Assembly (NCBI GenBank): GCA_965205045.1
Contig: OZ242031.1
Coordinates: 2,268,044 to 2,332,043, forward strand
DNA length: 64,000 nt
Direction: 5' to 3'
DNA from: Candidatus Rariloculaceae bacterium
Lineage (GTDB): Bacteria > Pseudomonadota > Gammaproteobacteria > Steroidobacterales > Rariloculaceae
Shown: positions 17,301-48,838 of the stretch, piece by piece
How the letters are laid out: each line of letters begins with the position of its first letter
Numbering within the stretch: position 1 is the stretch's first letter
The notes under the pieces: generated by a model
The model's input: the letters and a program-made list of their open reading frames with translations, nothing else
Databases searched by the model: none
What the model was told of the DNA's origin: nothing
Position numbers and translations under genes: made by a program

Positions 17301-17722
17301 GGCCCGGTGCCCGGTTTTCGGAAGGCCGGTATCGAACCGGGATCGCCGCCTCCATACTGAACCCGCAGCCAGCGCGCCAGGTCGTAGGCTTCCTGGAGCA
17401 GCCACGATACCGTTCGCGGCTTGACCGGTTCTCCGTGCGCGGCGCGATTGCCGTAAATTCTCAGCGCATGCAGCTTGTCGAGCACAACCCTCGGCGTGAG
17501 CGCGGTAAACGCGTGGTTCTTGAGCAGATCGATGAACGAAGGTTTGTCGGGCTTCGGCAGGCGCAATTCGTGGTAAATGCCCTTGGTGAGGTTTTCCCCG
17601 AAAAGGCGGAGTTTCACCAACGAGCTGGCCGGGTCGGTGCCAGCGTAGGCCTCGGCGAATCCTCCGAGCGACGCAAGCTCCGACCAGTCTTCACGAAGAA
17701 ATTCGAAGTTCTCCGATTTCAC
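14318..17722 (-). CDS. hsdR: type I restriction enzyme R subunit with an extra N-terminal helical domain
   Basis: 1134 aa. PD-(D/E)xK-like core [10 protein letters not shown]...VVEAKK. Helicase motifs VQATGTGKT and IIADESHR. N-terminus resembles a DUF4145-type domain. C-terminus resembles the EcoEI R C-terminal helical domain. Confidence 0.93.
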
Positions 17723-18576
17723 GCCATCGCCTCGCGTAGCGCGGCGTCGAATTCCGCCCTGTTCGAAATGACGATCGGAGTCTCATGCGGTTCATCCAGT
17801 TCGCCGGATACATCGAGCCGCAGCCGCTTCTGAAAGTAGTAGAGCAACGCCTTGCGCACGGGAATGGATATTCTGTCGTTCTCCATTCGAAAGTCTCTCG
17901 CGATCACTTTCCTTTGGTCTTCGTTCAATTGCGGATTTGGCATGATCGTCACGGCGAGTCTCTCGACCCAATATGTATCCGTCCCCGATTGCCTTCCCGC
18001 CCGGCCCTCGCTACGTACGTCCAGACAACGCGAAAGAATGAAGTCCTTGAACTTCTCATCGATATGGCAATAGGCCCGCACGTGCCAACGCAGCCCATCG
18101 TTGCCGAAGGCGTGGGGCGTAACGCGGCGCCACAGCGGGAGAGGGCGTTCCGGATTCATCGACTGATATCGAATCTCTATGGAAAGGTTCTCACTGGCAG
18201 CCCCCACGATCCGGCGAAGAATATACGCGTCGATGCGCCGGTAAGGAATGGGCATGACACCGTAATCCGGCGCCGATGACAACCAGGACTCTTGTGGGGT
18301 TCCCTCAGGGTTGGCCTCGGTCTGAAGTTGGGCGAGATACGAGTCGGACTCGGGCCGAAGAAAGACCGGCGCGAAGTCGTCCGCTGCCAGATATCGCTTC
18401 GCGCTCTTGTCGTAGACCAGATTCCCGGGGGCATTTTCCGCGTACAGCCGCAGATCCTTGGATGCCTGCGGCACGGACACGCCGAACTGCCCGATGATGT
18501 CCGCGCGATTGATTCCGCCTTCCCAGAAAAGACGGAATTCTATGAACGTCAATCGCTTTTCTACACCCCAACGCAT
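17719..18576 (-). CDS. BrxR/CapW-type wHTH-WYL transcriptional regulator
   Basis: The N-terminus RLTFIEFRLFWEGGINRADIIGQFGVSVPQASKDLRLY...LVYDKSAKRYLAADDF is the characteristic BrxR/CapW wHTH. The WYL-like core is GLRWHVRAYC. 4-bp overlap with the hsdR start. Confidence 0.85.
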   Translation of the reverse strand: MRWGVEKRLTFIEFRLFWEGGINRADIIGQFGVSVPQASKDLRLYAENAPGNLVYDKSAKRYLAADDFAPVFLRPESDSYLAQLQTEANPEGTPQESWLSSAPDYGVMPIPYRRIDAYILRRIVGAASENLSIEIRYQSMNPERPLPLWRRVTPHAFGNDGLRWHVRAYCHIDEKFKDFILSRCLDVRSEGRAGRQSGTDTYWVERLAVTIMPNPQLNEDQRKVIARDFRMENDRISIPVRKALLYYFQKRLRLDVSGELDEPHETPIVISNRAEFDAALREAMA

Positions 18577-24980: not shown

Positions 24981-26435
24981 TCACGGCCTCCAGAAAGTGG
25001 GTGTGATCAGCACCAGCAAGGTGAAGATTTCCAATCGCCCCAGCAACATGGCGCACACCGCTGCCCATTTCTCGATCGGGCCCACGTTACCGAAGCCGGA
25101 CGCCACCTCGCCGAGTCCGGGACCGAGGTTGTTCAACGTGGCCGCCACCGCGGAAAACGCGGAAACCTGGTCCAGGCCGGCAGCGACCAGGATCAGCAGC
25201 AGGACGCTGAAGACGACCACGTAGACGGCAAAGAATCCCCAGACCGCGTCGACCACCCGGTGGGGCACGGGCTTGGACCCCAGCTTGACCGGCACTTCGG
25301 CGCTGGGGTGCACCAGCCGCTGCACTTCCCTGAGCCCCTGCCGGTACATCAACAGCCAGCGGATGACCTTTATCCCACCGGCCGTTGAGCCGGCACAACC
25401 GCCGACGAAACTCGAAAAGATCAGCAGCACGGGCAGCACGCCGGGCCATACGGCGAAATCGGCCGTGGTGAATCCGGTGGTGGTGGCGATGGAAACAGTC
25501 TGAAACAGACCGTGGGTGAGGGTTTCGGTGAGCGTCGGATAGTACCCCTGGAAATGGAGGTACACGACCACCGCCACGATCAGCCCGCCGAGCAGCTTCG
25601 AGTAGGCGCGAAACTCCGGGTCCTGGAGGTAATGCTTGACGGAACGATGCCGCCATGCGAGAAAATGCAGCGAGAAATTGATGCCGGCAACGAACATGAA
25701 CACGACGGCGACCAGCTCGATCGCGGCACTGTTGAAGTACCCGAAGCTCTCGTCGTACGTCGAGAAACCGCCGATGGCGACGGTGCTGAACGCGTGGCAG
25801 ATGGCGTCGAACAGGCCCATCCCGGCCAGCAGGTAGGCCAGCGCGCACAGCACGGTGATGCCCAGGTAGACATACCAGAGCGCCTTCGCCGTCTCGGTGA
25901 TCCGCGGCGTCAGCCGGGTGTCCTTCACCGGTCCGGGCGTCTCCGCCCGGTAGAGCTGCATGCCGCCGACGCCCAGCATGGGCAGCACCGCCACGGCGAG
26001 CACGATGATGCCCAGGCCGCCGAACCACTGCAGTTGGTGGCGGTAGAACAGGATCGACTCGGGCAGCTCGGCAAGCCCGGTCAATACCGTCGCGCCGGTG
26101 GTGGTCAGACCCGACATGGACTCGAACACCGCGTCGGTGAGGCTCATCTGCGGATTGCCGGTGAGCAGCAGCGGCACCGAGCCGAACAGGCCCAGCACGA
26201 TCCAGAACGCGGCCACCACCAGGAATCCTTCGCGCAGCCGCAGCTCGTGGGTCTGCGCGCGAACCGGCCACCAGATCGCGATCCCGGAGCCGAGAACGAT
26301 TAGGAACGATGCCGCGAATGCCAGCCACTGGCCGTCCCCGAAGATCACCGAAACGACGATCGGCAGCAGCATCGCGGTGCTGAACATCGTCAGCAGCAGA
26401 CCGAGAATGCGTTGTATCGTTGCTCTGGCTCGCAT
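24981..26435 (-). CDS. trkH: Trk-type K+ uptake membrane subunit
   Basis: 484 aa, polytopic. Repeated selectivity-filter-like segments (SGLTTTGATV, TVAIGGFST, IATTTGFTT, TLNNLGPGLG). Confidence 0.92.
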   Translation of the reverse strand: MRARATIQRILGLLLTMFSTAMLLPIVVSVIFGDGQWLAFAASFLIVLGSGIAIWWPVRAQTHELRLREGFLVVAAFWIVLGLFGSVPLLLTGNPQMSLTDAVFESMSGLTTTGATVLTGLAELPESILFYRHQLQWFGGLGIIVLAVAVLPMLGVGGMQLYRAETPGPVKDTRLTPRITETAKALWYVYLGITVLCALAYLLAGMGLFDAICHAFSTVAIGGFSTYDESFGYFNSAAIELVAVVFMFVAGINFSLHFLAWRHRSVKHYLQDPEFRAYSKLLGGLIVAVVVYLHFQGYYPTLTETLTHGLFQTVSIATTTGFTTADFAVWPGVLPVLLIFSSFVGGCAGSTAGGIKVIRWLLMYRQGLREVQRLVHPSAEVPVKLGSKPVPHRVVDAVWGFFAVYVVVFSVLLLILVAAGLDQVSAFSAVAATLNNLGPGLGEVASGFGNVGPIEKWAAVCAMLLGRLEIFTLLVLITPTFWRP

Positions 26436-26493
26436 CTCGCATCTCGCATCTCGCGTCCGCTGGCCCGTGGCAAAAGTCCCGCGGCGCGGGCGG

Positions 26494-28488
26494 TCAGACG
26501 GGATGCCGAACGCGCGTCACGCGAAACTTGAAGTTTTTCGCCGGGCTGAGCTTGGGGAACGGGTTCAGCTTCAGCTTGTAGTTCTTCGGGACCAGCTCGA
26601 GCTCCAGGTGACGCGCGATCAGCAACATGTTCAGGGCCATCTGCAGTTCGGTCCAGCGCCGTCCTCCGCAGATGTGCGTGCCTGTTCCGAACGGCGCGTA
26701 GGCGCCCGCCTGTCTGTGTTCGTTTCGTGGCGGCGCGTACCGCTCGATGTCGAACTTGTCCGGGTCCTTGTAATGCTTCTCCATGAAGTGAGGCGCCGTA
26801 AACGCGATCAGTACCGAACTGTAGGGCGGAACTTCGAGACCATCGACTTCGAACGAGTTCATCGCGGTACGCCGGTGTACCGGTATCACCGGATGCAGCC
26901 GCAGCACTTCCATGGCGAATCGATGGGTAACGTCGATCGCCTCCGGCGTGAGGTCCTTCGCGGTCGGGTCGCCGTCCGCAAAGAGCGCATCGGCTTCGGC
27001 AACGATTTTCTCGTGCAGATCCGGATTCGCCAGCATCTCGTAGATGGCGAATGCCACCTCGCTGCCGGTGTAATGGCCCGCGATGATGGGTGCGATGAAG
27101 GCAAACCCCAGGTCCGTTTCGGGCAGGAACTGCGGGTCGGAGTAGTGCAGATCCATCAGATCGTCCACAAGATCGCGACGCTTGCCCTCGCGTTGCGCAG
27201 GCGTGTGCGCGGCGTGGATCTGGGCGTATAGGTTGAGGATATTCGCCTTGTATCGCTTCATTCGCGGCGTACGGAGCAGAAATTTCGGCACCAGGCCGAA
27301 CACGTGAACCATCAGCGCCCGATACTCGAACGCGAGCAGATCGTCGAGCACCTTCGTCGCTTCCATGCTGACGCTGAGATGCGAGATCTGATCGCCGATC
27401 AATCGCTGGCACGCGGTCTCTCCGGCCATCGTCTGGCCGACGCCCCAGCCGGCGAACGAGCGCCTGGCGAGACGGAAAAGATCATCCATGCGGTCCTCGA
27501 CCACGGCGCGGGAGTTCCCCGCTCGGACGGCCCTGCGCATGCGGAAGTGATCCGCTCCGTCCATGCTGGCGATGGACCGGGCCGTACCCCATTCCTGCTG
27601 AAAGGCTTCGAGATAATCCCGCGTTCGCAGCAGCAGCCGGCCCTTGCGCCCCACCCATCGGTTCAGTTCGGCGCTGGCGAGAACCACGATACTGTTGTCG
27701 CCCGGCGCATCGATTCGGTAGACCGGTCCCAGTTCCTCGCTCACTTCGGCAAAGAACTTGGGAAGATTGCCCGACCGCATCGTGCGCGACTTGAGCATGT
27801 CCAGCACGCTGATCGATGGCATCTTTCGCCTGCGAACCGTGCGATAGGCTTCCGGCGGACGATACGAACTGGCTACCGCGGCCCCGATGGTCCGCCCGAT
27901 GAGGTCCATCCCGCTGAGCAGTTCGATCCGCTTTTCGGCGACTTCGAACTCTTCCGGATCCAGCAGCGTCGGAACGCCTCCGCAGTTGTTCAGCAGCCCG
28001 ACGATGGCGATATCGCGCGGATCCGGAATCTCGTCGGTGAGCAGGACCCGGGTGATTCGGCTCTTGATCTCTTCGCGCTGTTCACCGTCTCCCAATGGAT
28101 AGCGGCCCGACCGCGAGACCTTGTTCGACAGGGACCAGAACCCGCCGGAATGCGAATCGAGAATGCCCTGCTTGGCCAACCGATCGAACGCCGCGTCGCT
28201 GATGGCTTCGGCCCGGCGAGCCGCGATCCGTTCAACCCAGTACTGCGGGCTGTGACTATGCGGGTTGTCGGCGATTGCCTTCAATGTGGGGTCCAGGAGT
28301 TCGTCGCCCGTCGGCGTTGCGTCGATCAGCGTGAGCGTCTCCAGGTCCGAATCGATGCGATTCTCCAGCGCCAGATCCATAAGGACTGCGCCCCCCAGCG
28401 CACAGGACATCTTCCACTCCGGAATGGGAGCGAAGTAGCCCGTGTTCTCGTCGAGCAGCAGCAGCAGAATTTCTTCGGCGAATCTCAT
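26494..28488 (-). CDS. GPP34(GOLPH3)-like N-terminal domain fused to cytochrome P450 (paralogue 1)
   Basis: 664 aa. N-terminus MRFAEEILLLLLDENTGYF...LIDATPTGDELLDPTL...GFWSLS...EIPDPRDI. P450 part has I-helix AGHYTG, ExxR (EVLR) and the Cys loop FGTGTHICGG. Confidence 0.85.
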   Translation of the reverse strand: MRFAEEILLLLLDENTGYFAPIPEWKMSCALGGAVLMDLALENRIDSDLETLTLIDATPTGDELLDPTLKAIADNPHSHSPQYWVERIAARRAEAISDAAFDRLAKQGILDSHSGGFWSLSNKVSRSGRYPLGDGEQREEIKSRITRVLLTDEIPDPRDIAIVGLLNNCGGVPTLLDPEEFEVAEKRIELLSGMDLIGRTIGAAVASSYRPPEAYRTVRRRKMPSISVLDMLKSRTMRSGNLPKFFAEVSEELGPVYRIDAPGDNSIVVLASAELNRWVGRKGRLLLRTRDYLEAFQQEWGTARSIASMDGADHFRMRRAVRAGNSRAVVEDRMDDLFRLARRSFAGWGVGQTMAGETACQRLIGDQISHLSVSMEATKVLDDLLAFEYRALMVHVFGLVPKFLLRTPRMKRYKANILNLYAQIHAAHTPAQREGKRRDLVDDLMDLHYSDPQFLPETDLGFAFIAPIIAGHYTGSEVAFAIYEMLANPDLHEKIVAEADALFADGDPTAKDLTPEAIDVTHRFAMEVLRLHPVIPVHRRTAMNSFEVDGLEVPPYSSVLIAFTAPHFMEKHYKDPDKFDIERYAPPRNEHRQAGAYAPFGTGTHICGGRRWTELQMALNMLLIARHLELELVPKNYKLKLNPFPKLSPAKNFKFRVTRVRHPV

Positions 28489-28690
28489 CGTTGTGCCAGG
28501 CTGGTAGAATCGCTACAGCGAATTTTCAGCCCGTCATCGCCGCAATGCAAATCCGGCGTCCGTTGAGCGGCATTGTACGTTCTTATGGGGCATGAAAGGA
28601 ATCGGTATTGGCGTTGACTGCCGGATCGGGCTAGATTGAATTTATCAATCGTCGCCGCCTCGCGCGTGTCGACATGAACGGAGTTGCTTT

Positions 28691-30682
28691 GTGAGGCTGG
28701 CCGAAGAAGTAGTCCTCCTGCTGCTGAACGAAGAAAGCGGTTACCTGGAGCATGTCGGAGGGTGGAACATGGCCTGCGCCATCGCGGGCTCCGTGCTGGC
28801 GGACCTGGCGCTGGACTTTCGCATCGACACGGACCTGGATGCCCTCACGCTGCTCGATGCCACCGAAACCGGCGACGAGTTGCTGGATCCCGTGCTGGCG
28901 CAGATTGCCGCGGCGCCGCCCCCGAACCAGAACGCCCAGTATTGGATCGAGAAAACGGCGGGCCGGGCGGATTGGGTGATCGAAACGGTGCTCAACCGGC
29001 TGGTGGAAAACAACATTCTCGACCATGACAGCGGCGGTTTCTGGTCGCTGAACCGCCAGATATCGCGAACCGGCGCGTATCCGCCCACCGGGGGAGTCAC
29101 GAGACAGGAAACGAAGTCGCGGATCTTCAGGGCGATTCTCGATGAAGAGATTCCGGACCCGCGGGACGTTCTCCTCATCAGTCTGGTCGATGCCTGCGAC
29201 GCGTTTCGCCTGCTCCTCACCGACGATGAGTTCGAGCAAGCCCGCGAACGGATCGATCTGATCTGCAGGATGGACATTGTCGGCCAGGCGATCGGCGCAG
29301 CCATCGAAGACAGCAGGGCACGGCCGGCGCCGACCTATGTGTCGCATACCAGGCCGGTCCCCAGGGCCAGCCTGTCGTGGCTGATGGGGAATCGACACTT
29401 GCGGCGGGGCGACTTTTCCCGGCTCATGACGGACGCGTACCGGGAGTACGGCCCGGTGTTCAGGATAGGCACCCCGTTTTCCGACAAGGGCATGGTCGTT
29501 CTCACCGGCCACGAAACCAATACCTGGATCAACCAGAACGGCCGCTACTATTTCCGGTCCCGGGACCACATGTCGGATTTCGAGCAGCTTTACGGTGCAT
29601 CGCGCACGTTGCCGGGGATGGACGGCGCGGAGCACTTCAGGATGCGCAAGTCGCTGCGTGCCGGTTATTCGCGCAAGTTGCTGGAAGCCCGCCTGGACGA
29701 ACTCTACCGGTATTGCCGGACGTCACTTAAGGAATGGCGGGAAGGGGACGAGTTGCCCGCGGCGGCGACCTGCCAGAAGTTGATGAGCGTTCAGGTTTCG
29801 CGCCTCTTCGTGGGCGTGGACACCTCGGATTGCATCGGTGATGTCCTGAAGTACGAGCACCGCTCGCTGATCACTCACGTTCAGGGCGCGTTGCCCAAGT
29901 TCCTGATGAATACCCCGGCAATGAGGAAAAAGCGCCGGGTCATTCTGGATCTGATCGGGAAAATCCACTCTGTGCATACGCCGGCGCAACGAAAGAACAA
30001 GCCGCGCGACCTGGTCGATTCCGTGCTGGACCTGCACGCAGCCGATCCGCAGTTCTTCCCCGAAACGGATGTGGGTTTCCTGTTTGTCGCAACCCTGATC
30101 GCGAGTATCTACCTGGGCAGCGGGCTGAGCTTTGCGGTCTACGGCATGGCCGCCCATCCCGAAATCTACCGAAAGGTGCAGGAGGAGGCTGACGCCCTGT
30201 TTGCCGACGGGGACCCGGACAAGGTTGCCCTGTCCGCGATCGCCGTGGCCAATCGGGTCTACCTGGAATCGCAGCGTCTGTACCCGGTGATCCCGGTACA
30301 ACTGCGGACCGTCATGAACCACCTGGTGCTGCACGGATACGACATACCCAAGGGTACTCGCGTGCTTTTCGGACACACGGCAACGCACCATCTCGAGGAA
30401 TTTTTCGCCGATCCGGGCCGATTCGATATCGACCGGTATGCGCCGCCGCGGGAGGAACACAGGAAAACCGGCGCCTACGTGCCGTTCGGTCTCGGCACGC
30501 ACCGATGCCTGGGGTCGAGGCTGGTGGAACTGCAGATGGCGGTCAACCTGCTGCTGATCGCGCACCGCTTCGATATCAGCGTGGCGCCTTCGGATTACGA
30601 GATGGGGTTCAATCCATTTCCCACGGCCGCGCCCAACAAGAAGCTGAAGTTTCGTATCGACCGGCGCCGCAACAGGTTCTGA
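28691..30682 (+). CDS. GPP34(GOLPH3)-like N-terminal domain fused to cytochrome P450 (paralogue 2)
   Basis: 663 aa, colinear with paralogue 1. MRLAEEVVLLLLNEESGYL...LLDATETGDELLDPVL...GFWSLN...EIPDPRDV. ExxR (ESQR) and Cys loop FGLGTHRCLG. The I-helix reads ASIYLG with no Thr. Confidence 0.85.
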   Translation: MRLAEEVVLLLLNEESGYLEHVGGWNMACAIAGSVLADLALDFRIDTDLDALTLLDATETGDELLDPVLAQIAAAPPPNQNAQYWIEKTAGRADWVIETVLNRLVENNILDHDSGGFWSLNRQISRTGAYPPTGGVTRQETKSRIFRAILDEEIPDPRDVLLISLVDACDAFRLLLTDDEFEQARERIDLICRMDIVGQAIGAAIEDSRARPAPTYVSHTRPVPRASLSWLMGNRHLRRGDFSRLMTDAYREYGPVFRIGTPFSDKGMVVLTGHETNTWINQNGRYYFRSRDHMSDFEQLYGASRTLPGMDGAEHFRMRKSLRAGYSRKLLEARLDELYRYCRTSLKEWREGDELPAAATCQKLMSVQVSRLFVGVDTSDCIGDVLKYEHRSLITHVQGALPKFLMNTPAMRKKRRVILDLIGKIHSVHTPAQRKNKPRDLVDSVLDLHAADPQFFPETDVGFLFVATLIASIYLGSGLSFAVYGMAAHPEIYRKVQEEADALFADGDPDKVALSAIAVANRVYLESQRLYPVIPVQLRTVMNHLVLHGYDIPKGTRVLFGHTATHHLEEFFADPGRFDIDRYAPPREEHRKTGAYVPFGLGTHRCLGSRLVELQMAVNLLLIAHRFDISVAPSDYEMGFNPFPTAAPNKKLKFRIDRRRNRF

Positions 30683-30738
30683 CGGCGGAACGCCCCGAGT
30701 ATCGCTGTGCCCCGCGTACTCCGTCCGATGCAATCCGG

Positions 30739-33700
30739 TCAACCCTGAATTTCCACCTGCGCGGGGGCCAACGGAGCGCTGTTCCCACGGCGCGGCAGCG
30801 TCACGCTCAGGTGGAGCATGGAGATCGCGGGCACCACCATCATCAGTATCGCCGTGGTGACCATGATGCCGATTCCGAGCGAGGCCGCAAACGGCATCAG
30901 GAACTGCGCCTGGATGGCGCGTTCGAGAATCAGGGGCGTGAAGCCCATGAAGGTGGTCACGGAGGTGAGCAGGATCGGGCGAAATCGTCCCTTGGCTCCG
31001 TCGATGATCGCGGTCCGCGCTGTCGCGTTCTCCCGCAGGCGTTGATCGATGAAGTCGATCATCACCAGGGAATCGTTCACGACGACGCCGCTGAGCCCCA
31101 GGATACCCATGATCGCGGTAGCGCTGAAGGCGAGGCCCAGGATCAGGTGGCCAAAGATCACCCCGACCACCCCGAAGGGGATGACCGCCATGACGATGAA
31201 CGGTTTGGTGTAGGAGCGCAGCGGTATCGCCAGCAGCGCGAATATCATCAGCATGGCGACCGCGAATCCGCGGTACAGCGCGCCCAGGGACTGGACCTGC
31301 TGCTGCTGTTCGCCGCCGATCATGTAGGTCAGGCCGGGGTTCGCCGCGGTGAGATCCGCCAGAATCGATTCGGTCAGGATGCTGTTGGCCTCGCCGCCGG
31401 AGATCACCGCTGTATCCACGTCCGCCGTGACCGTGACGACCCGCTCGCCGTCGCGGCGCGAGATCGCCGGCGGCGAAATGCCGGACTCCAGCCGGGCCAC
31501 CTGACTCAGCGGAAGTTCGGCGCCGCCGGGTGTCCGGATCAGGTATCCCTCGATGTCGGTGATGGCATTGCGCTCTTCGGTCGGGAGGCGCACGAAGGCG
31601 CGCACTTCTTCGGCGCCCCGCTGCACCCGCACGGCCTCGGCGCCGAAGATCGCCGCGCGGGTCTGCAGCGCCAGATCCTCCAGGGTAAGCCCCAGCGTAC
31701 GCGCCTCGGGCCGTAACTCGAGCTGGATCTCCCGCACGCCCGGCGTGTGATCGGAACGCACGTCGAAGACGCCCCGCACGCTGCGCAGGCCGTTGACCAC
31801 GGAGTTGGCGGCCTCCGCGAGGCGATCCGGATCCGGGTGGGAAAGCAGGACCTCGACGGGATTGCCCAGGTCGATGACCTGGCCGCTCAGGGTGATGCCG
31901 CGCACGTAGGGCAGCACGCCCAGTTCCTCCCGCCAGGCCTGCACCACTTCGATGGTCCCGATCTCCCGTTGCTGCGCGCCCAGCAACTTGAACTCGACGG
32001 TGGCGATGTTGGCTTCGGGATTCAGCGTCGGGTCCGGCGCGAGTCCGCCGCCCTCGACACGCGGCCGCATGCCGACCGTCACCGTGACCCCGGAGAGCAG
32101 GGGAGGCGCATCCGCCGGACGATCCCGCGACAGCCGTTCGATGGCCCTGTGCCCGGCGGCCTCCAGTTCCCGGGCCACCTCGTAGGTGCGCTGCGCCGTG
32201 GTGCCGTCGGGCATCTCCAGGCTCGCCGTCACGAAGTCGCCCTCCACCACGTCCGCGAATGTCGTCTGCACGATTCCCGCCGGCAGCAGCGATATGCTCA
32301 CGATGAGCAGGCCGATGGCCCCGGCGACGGTCGCCAGCGGCTGCCCGGTCGCGAAGTGCAGCGCCCGGTCCAGCGGGCCGTCGATGAAGCGCTTGAGGCT
32401 GCGGTCGACGAAGCCCTGGGTCGTTGCGAAGAACCGGTCGACCCGGTTCTCCGGCGCCCACTCGGGACCGGGAATGTGCGACAGGTGGTTGGGCAGGATC
32501 AGCAGCGACTCCACCAGGGAAATCAGCAGCATGCCGATGACGATGATCGGCAGCGCCCGCCATATCTCCCCGATGCCGCCGGGTATGTAGAGCAGCGGGA
32601 AGAAGGCCGCGATGGAGGTCAGTACCGCGAACGTCAGCGGGACCTTGATGCGGCGCGCGCCGCGGATGGCCGCGGCGACGCCCGGCGTGCCCCGTTTTCG
32701 TTCCTGGTGGACATGCTCGGCCACCACGATGGCGTCGTCGACAATGATGCCGATGGCCAGGACGAAGACGAACAGCGAGATGGTGTTGATGGCGATGTCC
32801 ATCGCCAGCATCACCGACAGCACGCCGACAAACGTGACGATCAGCCCCAGCGTCACCCAGATCGCGAGCCGGATCTCCAGAAACAGGGCCAGCACGACGA
32901 ACACCAGCAACAGTCCCAGCCCGCCGTTCTTGAGCAGCAGGTTGACGCGCTCGGAGTACGTTTGGGAGTCGTCGTTCCAGACGGTCACGCCGGCGCCTTC
33001 GGGCAGGGACGGGACGATGACGTCGGCCAGGTGTTCGTGCACGGCGTCGGCCACATCCATCACCTGTTCGCCCTCCACCCGGTGGACCTCGACGAAGACC
33101 GCCGGCTGGTTCTGGTGGCGGATGATCAGGTCGATGTCCTGGAATTCGTCGTGCACTACGGCGATATCGCTCAGCCGCACCACCGTGCCGTCGCCGCGGC
33201 TGAGCACGACGATGTCCTCGAAGTCCTGCTGGTTGTAACGCTGGCCCAGGGTGCGTACGCGCACCTGGGAGTCGCGCGTGTCGATGCTGCCGGCGGACAG
33301 TTCGAGGGACCCGCGGCGAACGGCGTTGGCGATGTCCTGAAGAGTCAGCCCGAGGGCGCGCAGACGGTGCGAGGGCACTTCGATGGAGATCTCGTACTGG
33401 CGCGCGCCGCTGGTTTCCACCAGGGAGACGGTGGGCAGCGACGCCAGTTCGTCTTCGATCCGGTACGCCAGTTCCTTCAGGGAACGCTCGGAAATGTCGC
33501 CATACACGATCAGGCGAATGACGCTCTGGCTGTTGGTCATTTCCCGGATTTCGGCGCGCTCGGCGCCGGCGGGGAAGGTCTGGATGCGCGCCACGGCGGA
33601 CTCGATGTCGTCGATGGCCTGGCGCATGTCCGTACCCGACCGCACCTCGATCCTTACCGAGGCGACGCCCGGGGCGGCGACGGACTTGACCGCGATGACG

Positions 33701-33960
33701 CCGTCCAGCGAACTGACCTGCTCCTCGATCTTGACGACGATGGACTCCTCCACCTCGTCCGGAGTGGCCCCCGGATAGGCCATGGTGACTTCCACGTGGT
33801 TGAAGGGCACCGACGGCCACGCTTCCCTTTCCAGGCCGGTGAGCGATACCAGGCCTCCGGCCAGCAGGGCGAACATGAGCAGGTTGGCGGCAACCCCGTT
33901 GCTCGCCATGTAGGCGATCGGACCGCCAGGCTCGCCGGAATAGTCGTCGTTCGGGCTCAT
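30739..33960 (-). CDS. RND efflux permease (AcrB/HAE-type)
   Basis: 1073 aa with 12-TM/two-large-loop RND organisation. Conserved TM4 region AIGIIVDDAIVVAEHV. Confidence 0.93.
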   Translation of the reverse strand: MSPNDDYSGEPGGPIAYMASNGVAANLLMFALLAGGLVSLTGLEREAWPSVPFNHVEVTMAYPGATPDEVEESIVVKIEEQVSSLDGVIAVKSVAAPGVASVRIEVRSGTDMRQAIDDIESAVARIQTFPAGAERAEIREMTNSQSVIRLIVYGDISERSLKELAYRIEDELASLPTVSLVETSGARQYEISIEVPSHRLRALGLTLQDIANAVRRGSLELSAGSIDTRDSQVRVRTLGQRYNQQDFEDIVVLSRGDGTVVRLSDIAVVHDEFQDIDLIIRHQNQPAVFVEVHRVEGEQVMDVADAVHEHLADVIVPSLPEGAGVTVWNDDSQTYSERVNLLLKNGGLGLLLVFVVLALFLEIRLAIWVTLGLIVTFVGVLSVMLAMDIAINTISLFVFVLAIGIIVDDAIVVAEHVHQERKRGTPGVAAAIRGARRIKVPLTFAVLTSIAAFFPLLYIPGGIGEIWRALPIIVIGMLLISLVESLLILPNHLSHIPGPEWAPENRVDRFFATTQGFVDRSLKRFIDGPLDRALHFATGQPLATVAGAIGLLIVSISLLPAGIVQTTFADVVEGDFVTASLEMPDGTTAQRTYEVARELEAAGHRAIERLSRDRPADAPPLLSGVTVTVGMRPRVEGGGLAPDPTLNPEANIATVEFKLLGAQQREIGTIEVVQAWREELGVLPYVRGITLSGQVIDLGNPVEVLLSHPDPDRLAEAANSVVNGLRSVRGVFDVRSDHTPGVREIQLELRPEARTLGLTLEDLALQTRAAIFGAEAVRVQRGAEEVRAFVRLPTEERNAITDIEGYLIRTPGGAELPLSQVARLESGISPPAISRRDGERVVTVTADVDTAVISGGEANSILTESILADLTAANPGLTYMIGGEQQQQVQSLGALYRGFAVAMLMIFALLAIPLRSYTKPFIVMAVIPFGVVGVIFGHLILGLAFSATAIMGILGLSGVVVNDSLVMIDFIDQRLRENATARTAIIDGAKGRFRPILLTSVTTFMGFTPLILERAIQAQFLMPFAASLGIGIMVTTAILMMVVPAISMLHLSVTLPRRGNSAPLAPAQVEIQG

Positions 33961-35171
33961 GGGCCCGGAGCGGCTCCGGTGCGCACGAGCATGCCGTCGG
34001 TGGCGAACTGGATGCCGCCGGTGATCGCCGCCTGGCCGTCTACCAGGGCGCCGGTCACGTAGACTTCATCGTCGCCGCGCTGCAGCGCGCGCACCGGGAC
34101 GATGGTCACGGCCCCGCTGTCGTCCACGGCCCAGATCTCGTTGCCGGGTTGCAGCGCGGCGCGCCGGACGCGGAAGTAGCTCTGCGGCGCCAGCCCCTGG
34201 ATTTCCACGTCCACGAACTTGCCCACCAGCAGGGGTGGAGTGCTGTCGAGCGCCGTCGCCACGCCCGCCGGTGTGCCCGCGGTGAAGGGATCCGGTACCC
34301 GCACGATCACGTCGATGGTCCGGGACTGCTCGTCCAGCGATGCCTCGGCCCGGTCCACGTAACCGTCCCAGGCATAGCGGATGTCGCCGTACTCGGCGAT
34401 CACTCGGGCTGCGATGCGCTGACCGGCATCGCCGGCGCGCTGGTCCCAGAGGCCCGGGATCAGCGCCGCGTTGGCGTCCGAGAGCGGCGCGACCACCTCG
34501 ACGGCGTCGGCGGCAAACAGTCGTCCCACCGGCTGGCCGGGCGCCACGAACTGGCCCACGTCCACCGATTCGTCTCGGACATAGCCGTTGAAGGGTGCGT
34601 TCACGCGGGTGCGGGCGACGGCCAGGTTGGCCTCGGCGACCCGCGCTTCGTCGCGGTCGAGCGCCGCCCGGGCGGCATTGAGCTGAGGTTCGCGCAACGC
34701 CAGCGGGCTGGCCTCGGACAGCGGGATCGAACCCGGCTCCTGTTCCGCGTAGCGTTCGTATTCGGCCCGGGCGATCGCCGCTTCCTCCTGGGCCTCCAGG
34801 AACGCCACCTGCCGGTCGGCGAGGGTGGCTTCGGCTTCCCGGAGCCGCACGACGTAGTCCTCCTCCTCGATCCGGAACAGGGTCTGGCCGGCGTCGAACC
34901 GCCCGCCGCTCCGGAAAGCGGGATCCACCCACGCGACCCGTCCGCCCACCTGCGGGGTGATGGCGACCTCCGCGCTGGGCCGCACCGTCCCGGCGCCGAA
35001 GACGGGGATCGGCCCCGAACCGGCGGCGACCGCGGCGGTCGTCACGAACGGCAATTGGGACGGCGGCTCGAGGCGCTCCGGTTCCGGCGCCAGCGATACC
35101 AGGAGGACCGCCACCGCCACGGCGCCGGCGACAATCCCCAGTGCGATCAATACACTTCCGATTCTGCGCAA
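33957..35171 (-). CDS. RND efflux periplasmic adaptor (membrane fusion protein)
   Basis: N-terminal TM, coiled-coil hairpin and beta-barrel pattern. 4-bp overlap with the RND gene. Start placed at TTG 35171, 4 nt after the OMF stop, so the start is uncertain. Confidence 0.8.
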   Translation of the reverse strand: MRRIGSVLIALGIVAGAVAVAVLLVSLAPEPERLEPPSQLPFVTTAAVAAGSGPIPVFGAGTVRPSAEVAITPQVGGRVAWVDPAFRSGGRFDAGQTLFRIEEEDYVVRLREAEATLADRQVAFLEAQEEAAIARAEYERYAEQEPGSIPLSEASPLALREPQLNAARAALDRDEARVAEANLAVARTRVNAPFNGYVRDESVDVGQFVAPGQPVGRLFAADAVEVVAPLSDANAALIPGLWDQRAGDAGQRIAARVIAEYGDIRYAWDGYVDRAEASLDEQSRTIDVIVRVPDPFTAGTPAGVATALDSTPPLLVGKFVDVEIQGLAPQSYFRVRRAALQPGNEIWAVDDSGAVTIVPVRALQRGDDEVYVTGALVDGQAAITGGIQFATDGMLVRTGAAPGP

Positions 35172-35175
35172 GGCC

Positions 35176-36711
35176 TTACTCCGTTGCCGTCCACGCGCCG
35201 CCCAAGGCGCGGTGCAGCGCCAGGCGGGCGAAGCCGAGATCGCGTTCCGCCGCCGCCAGCGCCGAGTTTGCGCTGACCAGGGTCCGGGATGCAACCAGGT
35301 AGTTGGCGTAGTCCGTGACGCCGGAGACGTAGCGCCGCTCCTGCAGCGCCGCCTCGGTGCGGGCGTCTTCCGCCAGCGAGGCGATCAGGGCGTGGCGGCG
35401 GAGACTGCCGTCCCACCCCGCCAGCGCCGCCTCGACCTCGTTGACCGCGGTCACCACGGCGCGCCCGTATGCCGCGGCGGATTCGTCAAGCTGGGCTTCG
35501 GCCAGCGCGAGGTTGCTCTGCAGCCGCGTGCCCTGAAATGCCGGCGCGAGCAGGTTGACGGTCAGGTTCTGGAACCACTGGTCCGGATCGAACCAGTCGC
35601 CGGTGTCCGTGCCCTGCAGGCCGATGGTGCCGGAGAGGGACAATGAAGGCAGCAATTCCGCGCGCCGGGCGCCGACCATGTAGCGGGAGGCCTCCATGCG
35701 CTGGCGTGCGGCGCTGACGTCGGGCCGCTGCTCGAGCAGGTCGGCCGGCACGCCGGCCGGGACGGCTTCTAGCGCCGGGGTGGGCGCCAGGGCATCGGGA
35801 AGAATGCCCGCCAGGTCGTCGCGGTAGCCGCCCAGCAGCACCCAGAGCCGGCCTTCGGCATCAGCCAGCGCCGCTTCGATGGGCGGCAGCTCCGCCTCGG
35901 CGGCGCGAAGGTTTCGACGTGCGGTGTAGAGACCTCGTGCGTCGACCAGGCCGCCGTCATAGCGTGAGGATTGCTGTTGTTCCAGTTCCTGCAGGATCCT
36001 TGCGCTTTCGCCGGCCAGGCTGCGCTGACGCCGCAGGTCGGCGATCTCCAGGTACGTGGCCACGGTTTCGGCGAGGACCCCGATGCGGGCGGCCCGCAGG
36101 TCCGACTCCGAAGCGAGGCGCTGGGCCCCGGCGGCGCGGGCGGCGTTGCGGTTGCGGCCCCAGAAGTCGGCTTCGTAGGCAAAGGCCCCGCCCAGCGAGT
36201 AGGTGGTCAGGCCGATCGCTTCCGGAAGGTCGATGCCGAAGGCAGCGTAGGTTTCGTCGTCCAGCCCCAGTTCCTCAAGCTGCGCGCCGATGCCGGCGTT
36301 GGTGGGCGTCTCGAAGTCGTTGCTGCCGATGGACGGGTTGATCAGCGGGAATGCGGGGGCGTTGGCGATGCGCGCCCTGGCGCGGGCCTGGTCCACCCGG
36401 GCCACCGCCGCCGCCAGGTCGAAGTTCGAATCCAGCACCGCGTCGACGATGCGGTCCAGGACCGGGTCGTCGAACGATTTCCACCATTCAAACGGCTCGT
36501 GGGAACCTGTATCGGCGACTGCTGAAAATGCATCGCCCAGGTCGGTCGCCGATTCCGAAATCGGCGGCGTCGGAAGCATGGAACAGGCTGCAAGACAAGC
36601 CCCGGCGAGTACCGGAAAGAGCGGCAAAGCCACTGCATTATCGGGCAAATTCAATGATTTACGATTCAATCTTGCGGGGAGGAATTCTAACACCTGACCC
36701 GGCGCGCGCAA
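35176..36711 (-). CDS. outer-membrane efflux lipoprotein (NodT/OMF family)
   Basis: Lipobox LAGACLAAC|S. Two-repeat OMF helical pattern. First gene of the OMF-MFP-RND operon. The true start may lie downstream of 36711. Confidence 0.85.
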   Translation of the reverse strand: MRAPGQVLEFLPARLNRKSLNLPDNAVALPLFPVLAGACLAACSMLPTPPISESATDLGDAFSAVADTGSHEPFEWWKSFDDPVLDRIVDAVLDSNFDLAAAVARVDQARARARIANAPAFPLINPSIGSNDFETPTNAGIGAQLEELGLDDETYAAFGIDLPEAIGLTTYSLGGAFAYEADFWGRNRNAARAAGAQRLASESDLRAARIGVLAETVATYLEIADLRRQRSLAGESARILQELEQQQSSRYDGGLVDARGLYTARRNLRAAEAELPPIEAALADAEGRLWVLLGGYRDDLAGILPDALAPTPALEAVPAGVPADLLEQRPDVSAARQRMEASRYMVGARRAELLPSLSLSGTIGLQGTDTGDWFDPDQWFQNLTVNLLAPAFQGTRLQSNLALAEAQLDESAAAYGRAVVTAVNEVEAALAGWDGSLRRHALIASLAEDARTEAALQERRYVSGVTDYANYLVASRTLVSANSALAAAERDLGFARLALHRALGGAWTATE

Positions 36712-36755
36712 ATCGGCCGCGCACGGGAGTCAGGCCGGCGCCGTGGCGCGGTCGC

Positions 36756-36827
36756 GCGGCTCGGCGCGGGACCATTGCCGCGGGCTGCCGGGCGGCTCGG
36801 CGCGGGACCAACGCCGCGGGTTACCGG
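36756..36827. repeat. 36-bp tandem duplication (2 copies, 5 mismatches) spanning the trkA stop codon
   Basis: gcggctcggcgcgggaccattgccgcgggctgccgg (36756-36791) versus gcggctcggcgcgggaccaacgccgcgggttaccgg (36792-36827). Confidence 0.9.
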
Positions 36828-38188
36828 GCGGCCTCGAAGAGCCGTTCCACTTCGTCGATCTGCCGGCGGTCGGCGACGAACAGGATGACGTGATCGTCCT
36901 CCTCGATCACCGTGTCGTGGTGGGCCATCAGCACGTCCTCGCCGCGAACGATCGCGCTGATCGTCGCGCCCCGGGGCAGCCGGATGTCCTCGATGGCGCG
37001 GCCGACGACCCGGGATTCGCGGATGTCGCCGTGGGCGACGGCTTCGATCGCCTCCGCGGCCCCGTGACGCAGCGAGTGCACCTTGACCACGTCGCCCTTG
37101 CGAACATGGGCCAGCAGGGAACCCAGCGTGATCTGTTGCGGGGAAATGGCGATGTCGATCATCCCTGTGGCGGCCAGATCGGCGTACGCAGGCTTGTTGA
37201 TCAGCGCCATGACCTTGTTGGCTCCGATTCTCCTGGCGAGCATGGCGGACAGAATGTTGGCTTCCTCGGCATTGGTCACGGCGACGAAGACGTCGGCGCG
37301 GTCGATATTCTCCTCCAGCAACAGGTTTTCGTCGGTTGCGTCGCCGTGCAGCACGATGGCCTTGTCCAGCCGCTCCGAGATGCGCCGCGCCCGCTGGTAA
37401 CCGCGCTCGATGACCTTCACCTGGTTGGAATTCTCCAGCGCGGCGGCCAGCCGCATGCCGATGTTGCCGCCGCCGGCGATGACGACACGCCGGATGGGGT
37501 CCTCCTGCCCGCGTACCTCGCTGAGCACGGCCTGGATGTCCTTGCGGGCGGCGACGAAAAAGACCTCGTCGTCCTCCCTGACCACGGTATCCCCATCCGG
37601 CAGGATGCTCTTGCCGTCCCGGTAGATCGCGGCGACACGGCACTCGACGTTGGGAATGTGCTCCGGGAGTTCGCGGATCGGCCGATTGATCAGGGCGCCC
37701 CCTTCGCGGGCCCGGGCCGCCACCAGTCTGACGCGGCCCTCGGAGAACTCCAGGACCTGCAGCGCCCCCGGAAAGTCGATGAGTTCATCTATATGGGCCG
37801 TGACCAGTTGCGCCGGGCTGATGATGATATCCACCGGTATGCCGTCGGGCCGGAACAGCGAGCGGTGCATGGCGTACTCGCGAGAGCGGATTCTTGCGAT
37901 CTTGCGCGGCGTTTCGAACAGGCTTCCGGCCACCTGGCAGGCCACCATGTTGATCTCGTCGCTGTTGGTCAGCGCGATGATCATTTCCGCTTCGCCCGCG
38001 CCGGCCCGCTCGAGAACGTCGGGGTGGGCGGCGTGGCCGAGGACGGTGCGCGCATCGAGGCGCTCCTGGAACTCGCGCAGCTTGTCCGGGTTGCGGTCGA
38101 CGATGGTGACCTCGTTGGCCTCCTCCCGGGCCAGACTGTAGGCCGCCGTGGTACCGACCTGTCCCGCACCCAGAATCAGGATCTTCAT
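36821..38188 (-). CDS. trkA: Trk-type K+ uptake NAD-binding peripheral subunit
   Basis: 455 aa with two Rossmann/RCK repeats (MKILILGAGQVGTT... and VVIAGGGNIGMRLA...). Confidence 0.93.
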   Translation of the reverse strand: MKILILGAGQVGTTAAYSLAREEANEVTIVDRNPDKLREFQERLDARTVLGHAAHPDVLERAGAGEAEMIIALTNSDEINMVACQVAGSLFETPRKIARIRSREYAMHRSLFRPDGIPVDIIISPAQLVTAHIDELIDFPGALQVLEFSEGRVRLVAARAREGGALINRPIRELPEHIPNVECRVAAIYRDGKSILPDGDTVVREDDEVFFVAARKDIQAVLSEVRGQEDPIRRVVIAGGGNIGMRLAAALENSNQVKVIERGYQRARRISERLDKAIVLHGDATDENLLLEENIDRADVFVAVTNAEEANILSAMLARRIGANKVMALINKPAYADLAATGMIDIAISPQQITLGSLLAHVRKGDVVKVHSLRHGAAEAIEAVAHGDIRESRVVGRAIEDIRLPRGATISAIVRGEDVLMAHHDTVIEEDDHVILFVADRRQIDEVERLFEAAR

Positions 38189-42594: not shown

Positions 42595-43902
42595 TCAATC
42601 GCTGTAGAGATCATCCGAGCTTAGTCGGGGCCGCACGGGCTGTGTGGGAGGCTGGTACGTTGGAACCAAACCTGAGCCAACTGTATCCGGTACATCGGCC
42701 AGCCGTCGGGCTAGACCGTAAGCGACCAGCAGGAATGTTGGATCGCCTTGTAATTCCGCTCCGTTCTCCTCAACCAGATCCGACGGTGCCCCCGGGTCGG
42801 CGGATGGCTCGGATTCGTTCAGCCAGACTCGCCTGTGTTCGATCACGCGTTCGCGGACCGAATCGATCTTGCTTCCGCCGCCCAGGAAGAACATGCGGCC
42901 AATGTGATTCCAAGCAAGGTCGCTCCTGTGCCTTTGAAACGCTTCCACGGAAGCAAGCTCCAGAACCTTCGCGATTCGATCAAGAACATGACCGATACCA
43001 GTTCTGACTTGGCTGCCCCAACAAACATGTATCAGCTCGCTTTCCCGTCCACGCACCTCGGCCTTGGTGGGCAATCCCAGATGATCGGCGAGCGCTTCGT
43101 CAATTGCGTCGCAGCCCGGTGGCGCGCATGCGTCGCCCCAAAACACCAACCTGTTCTTTACGCGCAGACCTCCCAAACGATGTTCGGTGATATGGAACCA
43201 GGACGCGCTCGTTGTGCCGGCCCCAACGTCAACGCAAGCATACCTTCCGTCCTCTATGTCTGGAGAGGAGTAAGCCCAGTACAAGGCTGCCTCAGCTTCC
43301 GAACGCACCCAGTCGCGCGGCTGTGAGGATTTGGAATCGGCGAGTTTTTTTCGAGCGGATGCCAGCGCGGACTTCGCGTCCTCCACGGCGATACCATTTA
43401 GCAGATCGGCGCCGCCAAGTAGCTGGAACGCTTCTCTGGCGACATTGACGAACATCGTCTGCAATTCATCGTCTTCGAGTAATGCCATTGGTGCGCCGAG
43501 GGTGACTCCGAATGATGGTTCTGCCTGAAAGCGCTCAGCGTAGCGGACAGCGGTTTCTTGGCCGAGTTGAATCAAGTGGCCGACATACAATGTCGCGAGG
43601 TCACGCGCGTCCAATCCGCCGAAGGGGAGTTCGGCCAGGTCGCCGTAGAAGTCATCTGGGTAGGCACAAAGCATTTTCAGCGATCGATACACGCGATTGT
43701 CGTCGCGCACGCTAGCCTCTGCGTCGAATCCGAATCGAATGAAGCCGTCGTCGATAACGACCGTGGACGGAATCAGAAAATCACCATCTCCACCGCATTC
43801 CAGCGACGGGCGCACCGGAAAGCTGCGATCTTCTTCTTGCGAGCCGTAGTCGGTGAGCACGAGCTTCGATCTGCTTGTACCGTAGTCGACACCCAGCCAC
43901 AT
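42595..43902 (-). CDS. actin/Hsp70-fold (ASKHA) ATPase, unknown family
   Basis: 435 aa from ATG 43902, which is preceded by AAAGGAGGGAA. Phosphate-1 motif LGVDYGTSRSKL, phosphate-2 motif CVDVGAGTTSASW, adenosine motif FFLGGGSKIDSV. Low G+C. An in-frame ATG at 44091 is an alternative start. Confidence 0.75.
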   Translation of the reverse strand: MWLGVDYGTSRSKLVLTDYGSQEEDRSFPVRPSLECGGDGDFLIPSTVVIDDGFIRFGFDAEASVRDDNRVYRSLKMLCAYPDDFYGDLAELPFGGLDARDLATLYVGHLIQLGQETAVRYAERFQAEPSFGVTLGAPMALLEDDELQTMFVNVAREAFQLLGGADLLNGIAVEDAKSALASARKKLADSKSSQPRDWVRSEAEAALYWAYSSPDIEDGRYACVDVGAGTTSASWFHITEHRLGGLRVKNRLVFWGDACAPPGCDAIDEALADHLGLPTKAEVRGRESELIHVCWGSQVRTGIGHVLDRIAKVLELASVEAFQRHRSDLAWNHIGRMFFLGGGSKIDSVRERVIEHRRVWLNESEPSADPGAPSDLVEENGAELQGDPTFLLVAYGLARRLADVPDTVGSGLVPTYQPPTQPVRPRLSSDDLYSD

Positions 43903-44102
43903 TTCCCTCCTTTTGCGAGGGCGTCGATCCTTGTCGCGAAAGGCCGCAGTTCCAGACAGGAACCCTTGCGGCTTGGCTGTTGGCATGATCGACCGGTCCC
44001 GAGTCTCAGGACTAAGTGCTGTTTCTTTCGCCTCTGCTGACATAAGGGATCGTCGACCCAGAGGTCGGACTAGTCTGGAAAGCCAACCCATGCCGCTATT
44101 CC

Positions 44103-47219: not shown

Positions 47220-47348
47220 GATTCGAAGTTCAACATGGCGCCTTTGCTGGCAGCAAAATTGTACTGGCTGGGTGAGTCAATCACGCTAATCCTAATGGTA
47301 TTGGATGCGCTCCAAACGGCAAGCGAAGTTGAGCACAGCGAGTACAGC

Positions 47349-47546: not shown

Positions 47547-47639
47547 TGTTTTCCGACCGCTGCCATTGATGCGCAGACGCGCGCCGAATGTCCATAAGAC
47601 ATTGTAAACACTCTATAAATTCTTGGTTCCTCCGGCATG

Positions 47640-48798: not shown

Positions 48799-48838
48799 TA
48801 GTTGCCAATGTCTTGTGGAACTGGAAGAGGGGTTAGTC

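Follow-up and report, generated by a model that had tools for sequence, protein, structure and literature searches.

Two GPP34–cytochrome P450 fusion genes beside an RND efflux operon in a Candidatus Rariloculaceae genome, with a possible link to sterol-type lipids

Bacterial proteins in which a GPP34 domain is joined to a second domain were published in 2025 under the name GPP34_L (Microbiome 2025;13:4; PMC11706023). There, the second domain is a cytochrome P450 in 656 of 663 cases, and the proteins are reported only from sponge symbionts, which span many phyla and carry 1–6 copies per genome of old, distinct lineages. The paper also reports that GPP34 genes are transcribed in Aplysina aerophoba and proposes, with no biochemistry given, that GPP34 proteins are secreted effectors that bind phosphatidylinositol 4-phosphate (PI4P) and block phagosome maturation. 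Here we describe a divergent pair of such genes in a 64,000-nucleotide stretch of a Candidatus Rariloculaceae genome (contig OZ242031.1, positions 2,268,044 to 2,332,043), hereafter the window, to which all positions below refer. The gene surroundings of the family and the nearest solved relatives of its P450 lead us to favour, tentatively, a reading in which the two proteins would be distinct oxidases of sterol- or steroid-type lipids coupled to efflux.

The GPP34-P450 fusion is already catalogued as a sponge-symbiont hallmark, and the architecture itself is not new. A first-pass annotation of the window, made from the sequence by itself, knew of no characterised example of this architecture; its publication corrects that statement, while a biochemically characterised member was not found, in PMC11706023 or in the other literature searched. 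The literature searched yielded no other paper on bacterial GPP34 proteins, and a term search of PMC11706023 for efflux, RND and AcrB returned nothing. The interest of the pair lies in a gene cassette that is conserved, a PI4P site that is lost and a P450 I-helix that is atypical, with the cassette as the main new result. Both window proteins have the layout and length of GPP34_L (GPP34 followed by P450, about 660 residues), and the old, distinct lineages described for the family fit the divergence of this pair. The two accounts differ over function: PI4P binding and phagosome evasion are proposed in the paper, whereas we find a conserved pump, Rieske and methyltransferase cassette and a lost PI4P pocket.

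Architecture of the two fusion proteins

Paralogue 1 (par1; 26494..28488, minus strand) starts with ATG and encodes 664 residues. Paralogue 2 (par2; 28691..30682, plus strand) encodes 663 residues and starts with GTG, with a GGAG sequence 7 nt 5′ of it. Both start codons agree with the family consensus N-terminus MR[FL]AEE. The two proteins are colinear end to end, with 47% identity over their full length, and the genes face away from each other across a 202-bp intergenic region (28489..28690), as first described. This region had also been called a shared promoter. The divergent geometry stands, but a simple promoter scan found no sigma-70-type consensus in the spacer, so that a promoter is suggested by geometry only. 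A repeat search of the spacer yielded nothing beyond chance and no convincing operator-like repeat; the single long inverted repeat that it returned was rejected as an operator, being the mirrored MR.AEE coding starts of the two genes. A 418-residue protein with 83% identity to par2 (P0168) is recorded on the contig of the window, outside the window itself. The source genome therefore holds at least a third copy of the fusion gene, possibly a truncated one.

Pfam assigns only GPP34 and p450 domains to both proteins, with no fused flavin or iron-sulfur domain, and NCBIfam gives no family-level match. The GPP34 match (PF05719, residues ~3–206) has E-values of 9e-36 in par1 and 8e-33 in par2 (124 and 115 bits; cut-off 29.1), and the p450 match (PF00067, residues ~230–645) has E-values of 7e-35 and 3e-44 (121 and 152 bits; cut-off 22.8). 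On the minus strand, the GPP34-fold domain of par1 (residues 3–206; 27871..28482) contains the motif DATPTGDELLD (residues 56–66; 28291–28323) and the hairpin motif GGFWSL (residues 115–120; 28129–28146). It is followed by a basic inter-domain linker with the string RTVRRRKMP (residues 207–235; 27784..27870) and by the P450 domain (residues 236–647; 26548..27783), which carries the I-helix sequence AGHYTGS (27061–27081), the ExxR motif (E527/R530; 26899–26910) and the Cys-ligand loop FGTGTHICGG (26662–26691). The plus-strand par2 is laid out in the same way: a GPP34-fold domain (residues 3–206; 28697..29308) and a P450 domain (residues 228–642; 29372..30616) with the I-helix sequence ASIYLGS (30101–30121), ExxR (30266–30277) and the Cys loop FGLGTHRCLG (30485–30514). 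All motif strings quoted in the first-pass annotation, among them DAT.TGDELLD, GGFWSL and EIPDPRD, are present in the pair, and its assignment of the two domains is confirmed. The AlphaFold2 (AF2) model of full-length par1 has a predicted local distance difference test score (pLDDT) of 87.9 and a predicted template-modelling score (pTM) of 0.73. Its sole long low-confidence stretch is residues 210–219 in the basic linker, which is disordered.

Homologues were sought in a collection of 5.8 billion proteins, where over 900 clusters matched par1 and over 600 matched par2. The top matches are, with few exceptions, 655–690 residues long with both domains, and nearly all of the 240 closest relatives have both Pfam domains. 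These 240 full-length relatives fall into three groups: clade A, which is par1-like (n = 123; I-helix AGHY[T/L]GS in par1 and its kin), clade B, which is par2-like (n = 27, at 62% identity or more to par2), and clade C (n = 90), about 50% identical to par2. Among GTDB species representatives (one genome per species), 412 loci encode a relative; counts of spread and neighbourhood given below refer to the best 80 of these. All 80 are from metagenome-assembled genomes (MAGs), on chromosome-scale contigs too, and encode proteins 60–75% identical to par1. They come from at least seven phyla or classes: Gammaproteobacteria (Pseudomonadales, Halieaceae, Pseudohongiella and Ca. Porisulfidus among them), Binatia, Gemmatimonadota, Latescibacterota, Vicinamibacteria, Thermoanaerobaculia, Bryobacterales and Alphaproteobacteria. 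Identities of 60–75% across phyla are best explained by horizontal transfer. The two window genes are ancient paralogues from different GPP34_L clades, and the family is horizontally spread. Many relatives have sponge-derived bin names, and the jk18x bins are MAGs from Caribbean Ircinia sponges. The MAG name of one locus (L039; JAAXHV010000174.1, isolate Plut_88898) points to the coral Porites lutea and not to a sponge; should the host be a coral, which only the bin name indicates, the family would extend beyond sponges.

The N-terminal ~210 residues of both proteins are a genuine GPP34/GOLPH3-fold domain, on which Pfam, profile comparison with PDB sequences and fold search agree. A profile of eight diverse N-domains matched human GOLPH3 (3kn1/9qpq) over residues 2–196 with an E-value of 1e-11 and Vps74 with 1e-7. 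The only significant PDB neighbours that Foldseek found for an AF2 model of par1 residues 1–222 (pLDDT 82.6, pTM 0.83) were GOLPH3 and Vps74 (E = 3e-8 to 4e-5, TM-scores of 0.5–0.7), with 3e-8 and TM-scores of 0.64–0.71 for GOLPH3 and 1e-5 for Vps74. The bacterial domain shares with these proteins (PDB 3kn1, 9qpq, 2zih and 4tu3) the fold across the whole domain, the TGD.LLD motif and the position of the β-hairpin. It differs from them in being fused to an enzyme, in its acidity and in the residues of the PI4P site. The PI4P-binding residues of GOLPH3, which we take to be W81, R90, R171 and R174 (numbering checked on the 9qpq alignment), map to par1 positions 22, 32, 94 and 97 in a profile alignment at about 20% identity. 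None of the four is kept: across the 240 relatives, W81 is replaced by Val or Ile, R90 by Ala (230/240), R171 by Asp or Glu, and R174 by Ser, Val or Leu. Ala is also found at the R90 position in stand-alone and STAS-fused bacterial GPP34 relatives.

The mean net charge of the N-domain is about −17 in the family (−14 in par1 and −21 in par2), compared with 0 for residues 61–277 of GOLPH3 and a neutral equivalent segment of Vps74. The P450 domain has the opposite charge (+6.7). This asymmetry, about −17 versus +7 with the basic linker between the two parts (par1 residues 1–210 and 225–664), is family-wide and suggests electrostatic docking of the two domains with each other, or docking with a basic partner. 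Both proteins open with the conserved helix that comes first in the fold, and neither has a signal peptide-like N-terminus. The lost PI4P residues, the acidic charge and the non-signal N-terminus argue against electrostatic binding to anionic or phosphoinositide-containing membranes, against a phosphoinositide-type form of the membrane tether first suggested for this domain, and against the secreted-effector model for the long form, GPP34_L. As far as sequence features can tell, a GPP34 domain that docks to proteins or hands over substrate would fit them. Membrane contact could still be made through the hydrophobic GGFW hairpin, which occupies the same place as the hairpin of GOLPH3.

C29 and C169 were considered as an invariant Cys pair for a metal or redox site and dropped, C29 not being conserved in more diverse fusions. 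Close relatives of the N-domain are also found in other architectures, namely STAS-GPP34 (330–370 residues; P0370, P0377, P0379, P0393 and probably P0376 and P0384), GPP34-GPP34-P450 (872 residues; P0248) and tandem GPP34 (444 residues; P0246). STAS-GPP34 is absent from the fusion partners (P450, Rieske and PotA) named in the available portion of PMC11706023.

The C-terminal part of both proteins is a complete haem-thiolate P450 of the BM3/CYP3A/CYP51-like structural type. Both contain the P450 signature F-x-x-G-x-x-x-C-x-G together with ExxR. An alignment of 72 diverse sequences keeps the Cys ligand, ExxR and a family-specific Tyr of the I-helix, Tyr473, without exception, and the Cys loop and ExxR are present in 240/240 full-length relatives. 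The domain is modelled with a pLDDT above 90 across most of its length. P450 matches dominated a fold search with the full-length model, which returned no family-specific neighbour and ranked BM3/CYP102 and CYP3A4 first (target-normalised TM-score ~0.8, 17–21% identity). A profile comparison with solved structures placed Methylococcus capsulatus CYP51 (6mi0/7jj1/6mcw) first, with an E-value of 1e-35 that is ∼10^7-fold ahead of the first non-CYP51 protein; it was followed by mycobacterial CYP51B1 (3e-28), P450DA (8e-28), a further CYP51 (3e-25), CYP3A5 (4e-25) and many CYP51s at ∼1e-24. Under the P450 nomenclature, membership in a family needs at least 40% identity. Membership in CYP51 was rejected, as the identity is 30%, the N-terminal half including the B′ region does not align and the AG[QH]HTS signature is absent. 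By these comparisons, CYP51 is the nearest characterised family, though the fusion P450 is not a CYP51. NCBIfam has no model for the fusion P450.

P450 BM3 (CYP102A1) and the Methylococcus CYP51-ferredoxin fusion likewise join a P450 of this structural class to a second domain. Their partner, however, is a C-terminal redox domain, whereas here it is an N-terminal GPP34 domain. No cofactor-binding family, conserved metal-ligand pattern or conserved Cys cluster was detected in the N-domain, which thus cannot obviously supply electrons, and the fusions do not have the make-up of a self-sufficient P450. There is no room for a ferredoxin gene beside the pair, since the flanking gaps are only 58, 202 and 56 bp. 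No ferredoxin or reductase families were found among open reading frames (ORFs) of at least 100 residues scanned at 14–44 kb of the window, in agreement with the first-pass annotation.

The I-helix of the family is atypical. In the alignment with CYP51, AGHYTGS of par1 is the counterpart of the CYP51 sequence AGHHTSS, which places Tyr473 at the "acid" position, occupied by His in CYP51, and Thr474 at the position of the conserved Thr. The fusions thus differ from M. capsulatus CYP51 in an invariant Tyr and a variable Thr. The acid-alcohol pair ([A/G]G-x-[D/E]-T) is absent from the whole family, in which the acid position is always Tyr. In clades B and C the sequence is AS[IL]Y[LM]GS, with Leu or Met at the alcohol position. 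The earlier remark that ASIYLG of par2 lacks the pair is correct, but the lack is not specific to par2. Among par1 orthologues at the species-representative loci, the alcohol position is Leu in 38 (AGHYLGS), Thr in 36 (AGHYTGS or AGHYTAS), Val in 4 (AGHYVGS) and Ala in 1 (AGHYAGS). The Thr contrast between the two paralogues is a trait of this par1 sequence and not of clade A. The absence of the pair would mark atypical chemistry or proton delivery, with membership in the superfamily unaffected. Co-located fusions always pair one AGHY-type with one AS[IL]Y-type protein (the window, L027, L032, L036, L073 and L076), which suggests complementary activities.

Conserved neighbours of the fusion genes and other features of the window

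A tripartite efflux operon of the resistance-nodulation-division (RND) superfamily (30739–36711, minus strand) lies directly beside par2, as had been noted. It consists of an AcrB/MdtB-like inner-membrane permease of the HAE-1 type (30739..33960, 1073 residues), which is convergent with par2, a periplasmic adaptor or membrane-fusion protein (MFP; 33957..35294) and an outer-membrane factor (OMF) of the NodT/OprM type (35176..36711), all on the minus strand. The permease matches ACR_tran with an E-value of 3e-151, and RND_mfp (TIGR01730) and outer_NodT (TIGR01845) score above their cut-offs, so that the composition is that of AcrAB-TolC-type efflux. The best PDB matches of the permease are MdtB, MexB and AcrB. 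Its score is far under every NCBIfam equivalog cut-off, and the substrate of the pump is therefore unreadable from homology. The OMF ORF (stop at 35176) and the MFP ORF (start at 35294) share about 118 nt, pointing to a later start codon for one of them, probably the MFP.

All ORFs within 10 kb either side of the fusion gene in the 80 loci were clustered without prior assumptions. An RND permease 64–78% identical to the window copy is present in 57/80 loci, which bears out the link to the neighbouring pump proposed in the first-pass annotation; with many phyla represented, the linkage is not accidental. The adaptor is found in 43/80 loci and the outer-membrane factor in 40/80. The commonest neighbour apart from the pump is an oxygenase with Rieske and KshA_C domains (52/80), followed by a flavin adenine dinucleotide (FAD)-dependent amine-oxidase-like protein (22/80) and a methyltransferase with a Sterol_MT_C domain (21/80). 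The methyltransferase carries the motif EYGWG.S.HF, which we take to be a sterol-methyltransferase signature. When direct adjacency is defined as a distance within 600 bp, the Rieske gene is directly upstream of the fusion on the same strand in 35/80 loci, the pump gene is adjacent in 24/80 (9 upstream and co-directional, 13 convergent) and the FAD oxidase is directly downstream in 18/80. Neighbours of lower frequency were rejected as cassette members, being lineage-specific housekeeping genes (glycolysis, transketolase and similar).

The nearest solved relatives of the Rieske neighbour are KshA 3-ketosteroid 9-alpha-hydroxylases (E = 1e-20). It thus resembles the oxygenase of the KshA/KshB system, from which the cassette differs in having no KshB-type reductase. 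An assignment to SdmA was rejected (33 bits for the SdmA equivalog against a cut-off of 600), and NCBIfam has no family-level match for this protein. The FAD gene (L011–L019, L026, L035, L049, L056–L063 and L070, at ∼12.0–13.4 kb in most) is 77–83% identical between phyla on large contigs; identities of 94–95% are seen on short contigs, which are perhaps mis-binned. Its nearest solved relative is the lankacidin cyclase/oxidase LkcE.

Genes of clades B and C often stand alone beside a pump, Rieske or methyltransferase gene of their own. Their surroundings share the same themes: RND, Rieske/KshA_C, sterol methyltransferase, FA_hydroxylase, DUF1295 and an NAD-epimerase family enzyme. We take the FA_hydroxylase neighbours to be of the ERG3/ERG25 superfamily, and DUF1295 is presumably related to steroid reductases. 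At a locus with an 87% identical par2 orthologue (L081), the OMF, MFP, RND and fusion genes all run the same way, and behind them come genes for MAPEG, FA_hydroxylase and MPAB proteins. At another (L082), the fusion comes after an NAD-epimerase-family gene and is followed by DUF1295, by a gene for a Rieske/KshA_C protein and by a pair of TetR genes. Two loci (L083 and L084) have pump genes plus a Rieske gene near the fusion, and in L085 the fusion is followed by a Sterol_MT_C methyltransferase. In vitro, related sterol methyltransferases of sponge symbionts methylate both desmosterol and 24-methylenecholesterol (PMC10070321). Published clusters for de novo sterol synthesis (OSC, ERG11, ERG24, SMT and sdmAB in Brown et al. 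2023; OSC-CYP51-ERG24 in Kelly et al.) are a different locus and were set aside. The terms P450, GPP34, Golgi, Rieske and efflux are all absent from the supplementary tables of Brown et al. 2023.

The loci nearest in synteny to the window are from uncultured Gammaproteobacteria MAGs (L001 and L081). In these and in the window (24981–38188), the same interval between trkA and trkH holds the RND operon and a variable cargo: par2 and par1 in the window; in L001 a single fusion of the par1 type, with a sterol-methyltransferase gene that is divergent; and in L081 the par2 orthologue, co-directional with the pump, with MAPEG, FA_hydroxylase, MPAB, thiolase and GYD genes behind it. To all appearances, cargo is readily exchanged or rearranged in this interval, as in a hot spot.

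Elsewhere in the window, a complete type I restriction-modification system is encoded on the minus strand by HsdS (11611–12801), HsdM (12798–14318) and HsdR (14318–17722), beside a WYL-domain protein (17719–18576). A stretch of lower G+C content (42595–52135; about 0.55 at 44–48 kb) contains an SNF2-family helicase (44103–47219), which adjoins an unannotated 537-residue ORF, a DDE transposase (47949–48785) and a 1116-residue Sortilin/Vps10-BNR repeat protein (48785–52135). The Vps10-BNR protein has a eukaryote-like domain of a kind often enriched in sponge symbionts.

Possible roles of the GPP34-P450 fusions

The reading that we favour, which we rate as close to an even call on the present sequence evidence, is that par1 and par2 would be two distinct oxidases of sterol/steroid-type lipids coupled to efflux. 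Their substrates would be sterol- or steroid-like polycyclic lipids, to judge from the gene neighbourhood and from CYP51 as nearest solved relative, and each of the two enzymes would catalyse an oxidation step of its own. Their substrates or products would cross the envelope through the neighbouring tripartite pump of the AcrB type, in the direction of the outer membrane or the host. More speculatively, electrons might come from a ferredoxin and reductase encoded elsewhere in the genome, and the acidic GPP34 domain might act as a protein-docking or substrate-handover adaptor, for example to the net-basic P450 or to a basic partner.

Several points weigh against this reading. The window has no homologue of the Rieske, methyltransferase or FAD-oxidase genes and only the pump beside the fusions, so that the sterol link rests on orthologues elsewhere. 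In the alignment with M. capsulatus CYP51, which covers 226 residues in the C-terminal half, only 30% are identical, and the fold search puts BM3 and CYP3A4, not CYP51, first. The acid-alcohol pair is absent, and the chemistry may therefore differ from ordinary monooxygenation. A search of the 80 loci for a small, conserved ORF resembling ferredoxin came up empty, leaving the cassette with no redox partner. The adaptor role put forward for the GPP34 domain is deduced solely from its losses and its charge, and the mapping of the PI4P residues comes from an alignment of low identity. No biochemical data for family members were found. Finally, AcrB-type pumps are generic multidrug exporters, so that a P450 with such a pump also fits detoxification.

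That last point is the core of the main rival, generic xenobiotic defence, in which the P450s would oxidise toxic lipophilic metabolites of the sponge or its microbes (such as terpenoids and brominated alkaloids) and the RND pump would expel them, a phase I plus phase III module that would have no special connection with sterols. We regard it as unlikely, although it accounts well for a pump that resembles AcrB, MdtB and MexB and has its own adaptor and outer-membrane factor, for TetR regulators beside some family members, for a cassette that is horizontally mobile among co-habiting symbionts, and for the pump as the only conserved neighbour of the window copy. It accounts poorly for the KshA-type Rieske gene as the most frequent immediate neighbour, for the methyltransferase of sterol side chains, an anabolic and highly substrate-specific family, both in the 21 loci and beside clade B, and for CYP51 enzymes as the closest solved P450s by sequence.

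Steroid catabolism, in which the P450 and the KshA-like oxygenase would start the breakdown of host sterols for carbon as in the actinobacterial CYP125/KshAB systems, is improbable. The KshA_C-type Rieske neighbours nearest to KshA structures and a thiolase gene near one orthologue point in this direction. However, no typical enzyme of side-chain beta-oxidation or ring cleavage occurs among the recurrent neighbours, the sterol methyltransferase neighbour is biosynthetic, and an exporter fits such a pathway poorly.

It is very improbable that the pair is split into a catalytic copy and a partner, as the first-pass annotation proposed, with par1 as the true monooxygenase and the Thr-less par2 as a peroxygenase-type or non-catalytic regulatory protein. 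The two I-helices do differ (AGHYTGS versus ASIYLGS), and co-located pairs always combine both types. Yet the Thr varies within the par1 clade itself, the acid residue is found in neither clade while the Tyr is invariant in both, and proteins of clades B and C keep the Cys ligand and ExxR and are often found without a second fusion, next to genes for a pump, a Rieske oxygenase or a methyltransferase.

The least probable explanation is a secreted, host-directed effector whose GPP34 domain would bind PI4P on phagosomal or Golgi membranes of the host and block phagosome maturation while the P450 acted on host lipids, possibly with a host P450 reductase: the sponge-symbiont distribution and the transcription in A. 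aerophoba reported in PMC11706023, a P450 fold of the eukaryote-like BM3/CYP3A type, the absence of a bacterial redox partner from the cassette and a GPP34 domain placed where a microsomal membrane anchor would sit all suit it, but with none of the four PI4P residues kept, the Arg90 position being Ala in nearly all relatives, a net charge that would repel anionic membranes, a conserved fold helix in place of a signal peptide, and a small-molecule pump and cytoplasmic oxygenases as conserved neighbours, among which no recurrent protein-secretion genes were seen, it is hard to maintain.

Oxidation of sterol-type lipids coupled to efflux can be framed more specifically, in a form that is possible but doubtful. 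GPP34-P450 would then be central to a cassette that is passed on horizontally and serves to tailor and export sterols, comprising the P450 fusion(s), the KshA-like Rieske oxygenase, a sterol C-24 methyltransferase, the FAD oxidase and the AcrB-type pump, with which phylogenetically unrelated sponge symbionts would remodel sterols and pass them to the host or receive them from it. As an adaptor independent of PI4P, the GPP34 fold would have found a second use in enzymes that oxidise lipids, and the P450 would work with a Tyr-based, non-canonical I-helix. If this is true, bacteria would account for some of the unusual sterol chemistry of sponges and for part of the record of sterane biomarkers ascribed to them.

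GPP34_L is among the most widespread families reported as specific to sponge symbionts, and PI4P-binding phagosome evasion is the sole published idea of its function. The lost pocket and the linkage to a pump, a KshA-type oxygenase and a sterol methyltransferase redirect the question to lipid, in particular sterol, chemistry at the interface of host and symbiont. Concrete candidate substrates and partners for GPP34_L follow, and its function becomes directly testable. For enzymology, the family is of interest as a P450 whose I-helix is unusual and whose fusion partner is not a redox domain. The locus also bears on the debate over the bacterial share in the sponge sterols that are used as animal biomarkers.

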